The notes beneath the pieces are model-generated. The model did not search any database and had not been told where the DNA came from. It saw nothing but the letters and a program-made list of their open reading frames with translations. From Escherichia coli (GTDB lineage Bacteria; Pseudomonadota; Gammaproteobacteria; Enterobacterales; Enterobacteriaceae), in assembly GCF_044647545.1 (NCBI RefSeq), contig NZ_CP172818.1: 64,000 bases of DNA. One strand, written 5' to 3'. Below, piece by piece: positions 38,867 to 42,092 of this stretch. Within the stretch, counting starts at the first letter, position 1. The number at the start of each line of letters is the position of its first letter. A program made the position numbers and the translations under genes.

Positions 38867-39058
38867 AAAATCCTACCAATTCAATAAGTTGATTTTCTTT
38901 CATGCTCTTATGAAGGTCGTGCCTCTGGCGGATGTACGTTTGTCATGAGTCTCACTCTGTTGCTAATTGCCGTTCGCCCCTGAACATCCACTCGATCTTC
39001 GCCTTCTTCCGGTTTATTGTGTTTTAACCACCTGCCCGTAAACCTGGAGAACCATTGC

Positions 39059-40252
39059 GTGTTTCAAAAAGTTGACGCCTACGCTGGCGACCCGATTCTT
39101 ACGCTTATGGAGCGTTTTAAAGAAGACCCTCGCAGCGACAAAGTGAATTTAAGTATCGGTCTGTACTACAACGAAGACGGAATTATTCCACAACTGAAAG
39201 CCGTGGCGGATGCGGAAGCGCGCCTGAATGCGCAGCCTCATGGCGCTTCGCTTTATTTACCGATGGAAGGGCTTAACAGCTATCGCCATGCCATTGCGCC
39301 GCTGCTGTTTGGTGCCGACCATCCGGTACTGCAACAACAGCGCGTAGCAACCATTCAAACCCTTGGCGGCTCCGGGGCATTGAAAGTGGGCGCGGATTTC
39401 CTGAAACGCTACTTCCCGGAATCAGGCGTCTGGGTCAGCGATCCTACATGGGAAAACCACGTAGCAATATTCGCCGGGGCTGGATTCGAAGTAAGTACTT
39501 ACCCCTGGTATGACGAAGCGACTAACGGCGTGCGCTTTAATGACCTGTTGGCGACGCTGAAAACATTACCTGCCCGCAGTATTGTGTTGCTGCATCCATG
39601 TTGCCACAACCCAACGGGTGCTGATCTCACTAATGACCAATGGGATGCGGTGATTGAAATTCTCAAAGCCCGCGAGCTTATCCCATTTCTTGATATTGCC
39701 TATCAAGGATTTGGTGCTGGTATGGAAGAGGATGCCTACGCCATTCGCGCCATTGCCAGCGCTGGATTACCCGCTCTGGTGAGCAATTCATTCTCGAAAA
39801 TTTTCTCCCTTTACGGCGAGCGCGTCGGCGGACTTTCTGTTCTGTGTGAAGATGCCGAAGCCGCAGACCGCGTACTGGGGCAATTGAAAGCAACAGTTCG
39901 CCGCAACTACTCCAGCCCGCCGAATTTTGGTGCGCAGGTGGTGGCTGCAGTGCTGAATGACGAGGCATTGAAAGCCAGCTGGCTGGCGGAAGTAGAAGAG
40001 ATGCGTACTCGCATTCTGGCAATGCGTCAGGAACTGGTGAAGGTATTAAGCACAGAGATGCCAGAACGCAATTTCGATTATCTGCTTAATCAGCGCGGCA
40101 TGTTCAGTTATACCGGTTTAAGTGCCGCTCAGGTTGACCGACTACGTGAGGAGTTTGGTGTTTATCTCATCGCCAGCGGTCGCATGTGTGTCGCCGGGTT
40201 AAATACGGCAAATGTACAACGTGTAGCAAAGGCGTTTGCTGCGGTAATGTAA
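39059..40252 (+). CDS. tyrB: Aromatic-amino-acid aminotransferase
   Basis: ORF 39017-40252; GTG at 39059 gives (M)[40 protein letters not shown]... (397 aa). Confidence 0.95.
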
Positions 40253-40474
40253 TGCAGGAAAGCAGGCTGGAGTTACCCAGCCTGCAGTGAAATTAAACTG
40301 TCGTCGTTTTCACTCTTTCTTTGTAGATGATTTTTTTGATGCCATCGTTTTACGTGAGGGATAATAAAAGGTTGTCAGTTCTTTTATTGTTAAGTTTATC
40401 CCAATTATCTGGAATTTCTTTCCCTGTTTTTTCGTGTGGAGTAATAATTTCTGCACATCTAACCATTATTAAAT

Positions 40475-41017
40475 TTAATAATAAGTATCGGGTTTGTTAC
40501 GATAGAATATTTCTATATCCTCAAGAATATGCTTTGCCTTATTGCCTGTGACTTTCTGAGATTCAATTATAGTATCGTTAAATTCTAATGTTAAAGAGAA
40601 CTCTTTTTTTCCGCTTTGTGTAAGTTTAACCTTATATTGATTACCAATATCAAATAAAAAGGTCCTGTAATGAGAATAATCACCTTTAACCTCCTCGGCA
40701 AAACAGCAAAGTGTGCAAATATACATACAATCTTTCTTGCCTCTGATTTTGTTAACTAAATCAATAAATGCATGAAAAACTGTACTTGCAATAGAACTTG
40801 ATACTTCTTCTCCAGGTCTACAAAAATCTTTTGCAATTTTTAACTGTGTTTCTATATATAAAAAGAAATCTTTGGCATAAGAAAAATCTTTGGAATAAGA
40901 GATATCTTTATTATTTAGTGCATCTAGCTCAACAGGTAAAGATGTCATTTTGTTGCTATTCACATATGATATATTCATATCATCATCTCCTTCGAGAGTA
41001 ATAAAATTAGTCACCAT
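40475..41017 (-). CDS. Hypothetical protein, AT-rich ORF between tyrB and aphA
   Basis: 180-aa ORF MVTNFITLEGDDDMNISYVNSNKMTSLPVELDALNNK...; AT-rich; no recognisable motif by eye. Confidence 0.5.
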   Translation of the reverse strand: MVTNFITLEGDDDMNISYVNSNKMTSLPVELDALNNKDISYSKDFSYAKDFFLYIETQLKIAKDFCRPGEEVSSSIASTVFHAFIDLVNKIRGKKDCMYICTLCCFAEEVKGDYSHYRTFLFDIGNQYKVKLTQSGKKEFSLTLEFNDTIIESQKVTGNKAKHILEDIEIFYRNKPDTYY

Positions 41018-41189
41018 TGTAGGGTAGGGTTCTGGTCAACCAGAAATCATCTTTATAAACTTCGATTGTTTTTGTAATGCTGTATCATTAAGTTCATTAA
41101 ATCGTACAGCAGATAAATGTTCTATCAAATTTCGCTCATTTGCAGAGGATTCATCATAATAAACGTAAAATTAATGTATCCTTCATTGA

Positions 41190-42092
<903 letters not shown>

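Follow-up and report, generated by a model that had tools for sequence, protein, structure and literature searches.

The AT-rich reading frame between tyrB and aphA of Escherichia coli as the intact form of the uncharacterised gene yjbS

Introduction

The interval between tyrB and aphA of Escherichia coli raises the question of whether a long open reading frame (ORF) in AT-rich DNA represents a gene and, if so, which gene it is, how it came to its present position and what its product may do for the bacterium. The window considered here is a stretch of 64,000 nucleotides of E. coli contig NZ_CP172818.1 (assembly GCF_044647545.1), in which the ORF list places a minus-strand ORF of 180 aa with an ATG start at 40475..41017, between tyrB (end 40252) and aphA (start 41379). 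An earlier note on this DNA, made from the letters alone and here called the original prediction, described the ORF as uncharacterised and offered two readings of it, a small gene acquired horizontally and an ORF that had arisen by chance in AT-rich DNA. Both the 180-aa minus-strand ORF and the AT-rich patch amid an otherwise GC-typical core are present exactly as claimed, with a GC content of 0.28-0.33 over ~40300-41300 vs. 0.49-0.60 in tyrB and aphA. On the evidence of position, strand, start codon and alignment, the ORF is the intact, unbroken full-length form of yjbS, an uncharacterised gene of E. coli. The history that best accounts for the data, and one that is considered very probable, is that the window carries intact ancestral yjbS, a protein-coding orphan on a ~950-bp AT-rich fragment lodged at a replaceable site between tyrB and aphA. 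That its product of 167 aa is a working E. coli-specific protein of undescribed fold and role, made only once silencing by H-NS is lifted, for example in the host, is doubtful and is put forward as a tentative possibility.

Identity with yjbS and the gene model

The locus is already catalogued as an uncharacterised gene, and the window shows its intact form. The ORF shares with K-12 yjbS (b4621) the position between tyrB and aphA, the minus strand and the start codon, as seen both in annotated regions and in the alignment. The K-12 product (UniProt YJBS_ECOLI, WP_001321562.1) is an uncharacterised protein of 67 aa, and in K-12-like genomes the site is annotated yjbS, 'protein YjbS', 67 aa. At the DNA level, the 1126-bp interval is 100% identical to that of E. 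coli FDAARGOS_497, the segment occurs in 4378 of 5426 complete E. coli genomes, and its identity to K-12 at the same position is 94.9-95.0% over 1126 bp. Residues 1-46 of K-12 YjbS match the N-terminus of the long form, minus one copy of a 6-aa repeat. The K-12 allele departs from that of the window in having one 18-bp repeat unit fewer, in frame, in having A6 in place of an A7 run, and in the loss of a single base from GATTTTTGTAG, so that translation leaves the frame after residue 46 and ends at residue 67. Because of this lost base, K-12 YjbS is regarded as a frameshift remnant whose last 21 residues are out of frame, whereas the window has the complete 167-aa form. That the locus was already known as yjbS, and that its K-12 copy is broken, had been missed in the original prediction.

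The ATG at 41017 that opens the 180-aa ORF is without a Shine-Dalgarno sequence; the ATG at 40978 is preceded by AAGGAG 8 nt upstream, the kind of ribosome-binding site that the original prediction had proposed to look for. The start at this second ATG (MNISY) is also that of K-12 YjbS and of most database proteins of the YjbS family, and the second position of codon 8 in the 13-codon upstream extension varies (L/R/P/H) among the alleles seen. For these reasons the likely product is one of 167 aa, and the first 13 codons (40979-41017) are probably untranslated and part of the 5' untranslated region. The copy number of the 18-bp unit differs by strain (1, 2 or 3), always in frame, yielding proteins of 161, 167 or 173 aa. 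The exact YjbS protein of the window occurs on at least 1000 contigs of a public collection, named only 'hypothetical/uncharacterized protein'.

A coding sequence under weak selection

In 5000 dinucleotide-preserving shuffles of the interval (40253-41378, 1126 bp), the mean length of the longest ORF was 64 codons and the maximum 153, against the 180 observed, and none of the 5000 attained 167 codons or more; since its length lies beyond that in all shuffles of this 30% GC DNA, the ORF is not an artefact of composition. Among 12 distinct intact alleles, there are 14 variable sites at codon position 1, 22 at position 2 and 31 at position 3, and the summed Nei-Gojobori ratio of non-synonymous to synonymous change (dN/dS, omega) is 0.38 in the frame of the ORF vs. 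0.54-1.4 in the other five frames. Relative to their consensus, the intact alleles have 26 synonymous and 47 non-synonymous changes, where 19% would be expected to be synonymous (p = 8e-4). An unselected sample of 12 alleles, picked blind to intactness and with codons near insertions or deletions (indels) excluded, gave 16 synonymous, 23 non-synonymous and 0 nonsense changes vs. 8.6, 28.6 and 1.8 expected (p = 0.01). No unambiguous in-frame stop made by substitution was seen in 16 alleles, the sole apparent TAG (in L092) being ambiguous and located at an indel. The ORF is thus under weak purifying selection in its own frame, with repeated decay. In the same strains, the proportion of synonymous differences (pS) of yjbS is 0.03-0.17, at or above that of tyrB (0.03-0.11), which is read as long residence in E. 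coli.

These data bear directly on the proposal that the sequence is a chance ORF in AT-rich non-coding DNA that never encoded a protein. Such a view could appeal to the missing homologues outside Escherichia and Shigella, to the lack of a domain and of a confidently predicted fold, and to the broken frame of many strains, but it leaves unexplained an ORF of 167-180 codons unmatched in any shuffle, a canonical Shine-Dalgarno sequence, an omega that is lowest in the frame of the ORF, the synonymous excess, and the dearth of substitution-made stops. It is here rejected as very improbable.

Intact and broken alleles

Lesions were counted across the 5426 complete genomes with 34-mers whose position forces each 28-base seed to cross the lesion. 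The intact T-run site (GATTTTTGTAG) is present in 2797 genomes, the K-12 deletion in 1518 and the 10-bp deletion of O157 in 309. The A7 run is a second place of breakage: it is A6 in K-12, it has suffered different small deletions in two other lineages, and in O157:H7 it is removed altogether by the 10-bp deletion, which leaves a product of 119 aa. Of 12 sampled alleles, eight are intact (161, 167 or 173 aa) and four are broken, each by a different lesion; when only those that are neither K-12-type nor O157-type are considered, 8/10 are intact. A fully intact ORF is probably kept in ~2000 of the 5426 complete genomes, a figure that is an estimate and not a count (0.8 x ~2500 genomes without the K-12 or O157 lesion). 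The original prediction had named conservation of the reading frame across E. coli as a test of a genuine gene; the frame carries one or other of two specific lesions in 1518 + 309 of 4378 genomes, and since it is not conserved in all E. coli, yjbS is by that measure only conditionally maintained.

Insertion sequences (IS) have repeatedly entered the neighbourhood. One genome has IS1 inside the yjbS segment, another has an IS1-associated deletion that removes the segment together with the 5' end of aphA, and further elements in the neighbourhood include IS150 in aphA and IS1 in kguS (the loci concerned being L005 3115-3882, H11, L092 1535-1726 and L008 961-1658). IS1 insertions in K-12 yjbS have been reported in macrophage-evolved K-12 clones (PMC4999529). 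As a lead to a phenotype these insertions were rejected, in that K-12 yjbS is already a remnant and an identical three-mutation haplotype occurs in both populations. A further ground for rejection is that IS1 favours AT-rich targets.

Annotation of the locus

The naming reference for the locus, K-12 YjbS, is a frameshift product, and for this reason the Prokaryotic Genome Annotation Pipeline (PGAP) mislabels the intact ORF. In the window, PGAP labels it a 223-bp 'frameshifted' pseudogene, corresponding to 40756-40978. Elsewhere, intact copies of the ORF may receive a second call, an 83-aa 'hypothetical protein' beginning at the internal Met85; loci with one or other of these annotations include L004 1722-2225, L093, L094 and L096. 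An N-terminal part called 'frameshifted' or 'incomplete', or a truncated gene, is found in 9/10 sampled genomes that are neither K-12-like nor O157-like, and the separate 83-aa C-terminal fragment is called in 4/8 intact sampled genomes. Some two thousand complete genomes are probably affected, and pan-genome and pseudogene counts at the yjbS locus are therefore systematically wrong. Correction of the annotation is the main value of the present analysis. Any study of yjbS has hitherto been made through the broken K-12 copy only.

Origin of the insert and alternative occupants of the site

The origin of the AT-rich DNA was surveyed in 80 loci around aphA, one genome per species, with tyrB located within each; E. 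fergusonii was absent from the loci returned. The gap between tyrB and aphA is mostly ~70-320 bp in Citrobacter, Salmonella, Kluyvera, Klebsiella, Enterobacter and others, and 328-354 bp in E. whittamii and three other Escherichia genome-species. By tblastn, yjbS was found in none of these 80 non-E. coli loci (a set from which E. fergusonii is absent). The region upstream of aphA (41241..41378) is common to other Escherichia species, Salmonella and Citrobacter. Within E. coli, tyrB and aphA lie less than 700 bp apart in 19 complete genomes, and in the single one of them examined (L007) the gap is of the empty type and measures 336 bp. At the other edge of the insert, the hairpin directly 3' of the tyrB stop codon is, from its sequence, probably the tyrB terminator, although it was unlisted by the terminator scan; the first 18 nt of the hairpin region, TAATGCAGGAAAGCAGGC, alone match one insert-less allele (L010). 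The insert resembles neither the KguS/KguR island described below nor the empty-site spacers, nor any other part of the window. Neither a mobility gene, nor a tRNA, nor convincing terminal inverted or direct repeats were found at the insert in the repeat search and the locus, and Rfam at a permissive threshold gave no match over 39900-41700. Coordinates of the features are collected in Table 1.

Table 1. Features of the tyrB-aphA interval, in coordinates of the window
Feature	Position	Strand	Basis
E. coli-specific AT-rich insert carrying yjbS, 950 bp, GC 0.30	~40291..41240		comparison with empty-site and KguSR-island alleles
Probable full-length yjbS coding sequence (CDS), 167 aa + stop, MNISYVNSNK...RNKPDTYY	40475..40978	-	Shine-Dalgarno, homologue starts, in-frame dN/dS
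13-codon in-frame upstream extension, probably 5' untranslated region; Shine-Dalgarno AAGGAG at 40987-40992	40979..41017	-	
Two tandem 18-bp units encoding SY(S/A)KDF	40865..40900	-	repeat search and allele comparison
GATTTTTGTAG site; loss of G gives the K-12 frameshift and the 67-aa 'YjbS'	40818..40828	-	alignment, translations, genome counts
A7 run (40603-40609), hot spot of inactivating indels	40601..40612	-	allele comparison
Candidate sigma-70 promoter for yjbS: TTGATA, 16 nt, TACGAT	41101..41128	-	consensus match only
Hairpin directly 3' of the tyrB stop, GCAGGCTGG-loop-CCAGCCTGC	40253..40290	+	sequence
Conserved region upstream of aphA, outside the insert	41241..41378	+	alignments, blastn

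The junction between tyrB and aphA exists in three states, namely an empty short spacer, the yjbS insert (E. coli only) and a 13.8-kb KguS/KguR 2-oxoglutarate island. In 1043 E. coli genomes the 5' end of aphA is only 90-95% identical to that of the window; two of these were examined, and in both the KguS/KguR island adjoins aphA (in S10EC as 13.8 kb with 2-oxoglutarate dehydrogenase/sucCD genes, in 14EC007 in an IS-disrupted form). About 1040 E. coli genomes thus appear to carry the island in place of yjbS, and it is the alternative occupant in the examined genomes without the yjbS segment. The island (c5032-c5041) has been described between tyrB and aphA in CFT073 (PMC3694859), and it also adjoins aphA in E. 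albertii, in three Citrobacter genomes and in Klebsiella indica. Like the yjbS insert, it occupies the tyrB-aphA site with a right boundary ~139 bp upstream of aphA; unlike the insert, it spans 13.8 kb at 49% GC, carries ten genes of known function and extends beyond E. coli, and the two share no sequence similarity. Unrelated GC-rich inserts (0.7-1.05 kb, GC 0.55-0.63) were observed at the same site in Enterobacter sp. RIT418, Huaxiibacter chinensis, Lelliottia sp. WAP21 and Enterobacter hormaechei (L044, L077, L079 and L085).

Taken as a whole, the survey upholds the proposal of a small horizontally acquired gene, in that a segment of ~950 bp is missing from the site in four Escherichia genome-species and other enterobacteria, is deviant in GC content and resembles no other sequence compared. 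The simplest reading of the sequences is that a ready-made gene was acquired early in E. coli from an unsampled AT-rich donor, and that cassettes may be exchanged at the site via the conserved flanks. The locus illustrates neatly how an orphan gene restricted to one species can occupy a replaceable site while held between weak maintenance and repeated loss; it is useful for work on the turnover of orphan genes and is unsurprising in kind.

H-NS, silencing and a possible role as DNA

The K-12 tyrB/yjbS interval is among the H-NS-bound, transcriptionally silent 'promoter islands' (PMC3661553). Like the segment in the window, such islands and xenogeneic orphan genes are AT-rich (30% GC), lineage-restricted and of no known function. 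The AT-richness of the insert is consistent with silencing by H-NS. Unlike promoter islands, the segment of the window is not enriched in promoter-like sites over shuffles, a pattern scan having counted 7 vs. 5.4 +/- 2.3. H-NS occupancy can lower the frequency of Tn5 insertion. The gene yjbS has been listed among those with few Tn5 insertions in TraDIS (PMC5821084). This scarcity of insertions is read here as a consequence of H-NS occupancy rather than of essentiality.

Among six alleles, the insert DNA 5' of yjbS, which lies by the aphA promoter (41018-41240), diverges by 1-5%, compared with 1-8% for the CDS and 2-13% for the 3' flank (40291-40474). The lower divergence of 41018-41240 hints at constraint on regulatory DNA. 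It is in this context that a second alternative has to be weighed, namely that the segment matters as DNA, providing H-NS nucleation or a 'promoter island' with an insulating or tuning effect on the aphA promoter or on the termination of tyrB, with the ORF as a drifting relic of the donor. The graded divergence would be in keeping with such a role, as would the H-NS-bound promoter island of K-12, the retention of the whole 1.1-kb segment in 4329/4379 matching records, broken-ORF copies included, and the restriction to 19 of the genomes with tyrB and aphA within 700 bp. However, a frame-specific synonymous excess and missing nonsense substitutions are unexpected under pure selection at the DNA level, aphA operates in other Escherichia species and in B2-like strains that have no such segment, and its retention may just reflect the rarity of clean deletions. 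A role as DNA in place of a protein is accordingly held to be unlikely, and an intact protein-coding yjbS is retained as the preferred explanation.

Homologues and predicted properties of YjbS

No homologue outside Escherichia and Shigella was found in a word-indexed search of 5.8 billion proteins, in which all names of the YjbS family were E. coli, Shigella or Escherichia sp., or in an exhaustive HMMER search of 1.84 billion representatives with a family profile. The latter returned 27 hits, all short (26-142 aa) and aligned to parts of the profile; ten of these were shared with the word-indexed search and are 73-87% identical to YjbS, and the 27 are read as fragments of the YjbS family. Pfam, PHROGs and PADLOC gave 0 matches each, the sole NCBIfam hit was BamG at 13 bits vs. 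a cut-off of 250, and the best match among Protein Data Bank (PDB) sequences was SipA at a non-significant E = 0.89. The statement in the original prediction that no domain is recognisable is borne out by all of these resources (Pfam, NCBIfam, PHROGs, PADLOC, PDB and HMMER).

The 167-aa product has a pI of 6.3, a mass of 19.4 kDa and a GRAVY of -0.36, and is mildly hydrophilic; neither a signal peptide nor a membrane segment is seen in its sequence by eye. Of its five cysteines, those at 84, 88 and 91 vary among alleles, and an obligatory metal site is therefore unlikely. The protein is predicted, with low confidence, to be soluble and cytoplasmic. In this prediction its Ser/Asn-rich N-terminus, which holds the repeat, is disordered, and after it come a helical region, a sheet of five strands and a helix at the C-terminus. 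The 18-bp repeat falls inside this predicted disordered N-terminus.

By a further alternative, YjbS would serve a type III secretion system (T3SS), either ETT2 or LEE, as a substrate or as an accessory factor, resembling an effector with an N-terminal secretion signal. This is thought highly improbable: the similarities concerned are all sub-threshold and non-significant and the structural model is unreliable, no T3SS gene lies nearby, and a distribution that parallels that of ETT2 would fit many non-B2 genes. The role preferred for YjbS, at low confidence, is that of an accessory protein without enzymatic activity, seldom expressed and of conditional value.

A model for yjbS and its weaknesses

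The model proposed here starts from the finding that the DNA between tyrB and aphA is foreign to the site: it is absent from the other Escherichia recovered and from the enterobacteria compared, and takes the place of some of a short ancestral spacer. In K-12 the segment has been described as an H-NS-bound, silent 'promoter island' (PMC3661553), and from this silence it would follow that yjbS is rarely expressed and, in turn, that selection on the protein is weak, not absent (dN/dS ~0.4). Slippage-prone runs (A7 and T5G) and the 18-bp repeat give rise to recurrent indels, with independent breakage in K-12-like strains, in O157 and in others. The product would act on its own and without enzymatic activity, as a binding or accessory protein of conditional benefit and not as a housekeeping one, a step that is proposed with low confidence. 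If YjbS is indeed a working protein of undescribed fold and role, it would have escaped notice because the copies in the two reference strains, K-12 and O157, are broken and intact copies are automatically annotated as pseudogenes.

Several considerations weigh against this model, in particular against a protein that still matters. Constraint on yjbS is weak, with an omega of 0.2-0.7 by pair vs. 0.02-0.15 for tyrB and aphA in the same strains. The reading frame is not kept open species-wide, and since more than 40% of segment carriers are broken, the protein may have lost its importance in many lineages or in all of them. The evidence for binding and silencing by H-NS comes from K-12, another strain with a broken allele, and no expression or phenotype data for the long form of YjbS were found in the literature. 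The structural model is poor (pLDDT 49.5) and permits no fold assignment, and the statement on structure given above goes little beyond a prediction of secondary structure. As for the origin, no relative was found among phages and true plasmids (both by tblastn), viral contigs (IMG/VR) or the 1.84 billion protein representatives; neither a donor, nor a mobility gene, nor an insertion signature came to light, and the term 'horizontal' rests on absence elsewhere and on composition. What the analysis adds to the catalogued locus is a 167-aa gene model, the recognition of the K-12 and O157 remnants and of the PGAP error, a species-specific origin, a site with three states, and weak selection accompanied by decay.

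Additional observations

Two public European Nucleotide Archive (ENA) contigs join YjbS to other sequence. In the first (P0063, 898 bp), a K-12-type YjbS N-terminus is retained through 'NNKDI' and is followed by the C-terminus of haemolysin E (PF06109); in the second (P0058, 8121 bp), the YjbS N-terminus is joined to unrelated sequence at the site of the T-run. Chimeric assembly, strain engineering or insertion may account for them. The yjbS records filed as plasmids in PLSDB (H81-H88) are E. coli replicons of 0.37-4.9 Mb, and represent chromosomal DNA deposited under that heading; a further PLSDB record, a 17-kb Klebsiella oxytoca entry (NZ_CP069917.1) with K-12-type yjbS, looks like E. coli DNA. 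Finally, the neighbouring tyrB ORF, when read from a TTG (39017-39058 region), is 411 aa long, and RefSeq gives tyrB as 397 aa from a GTG at 39059.
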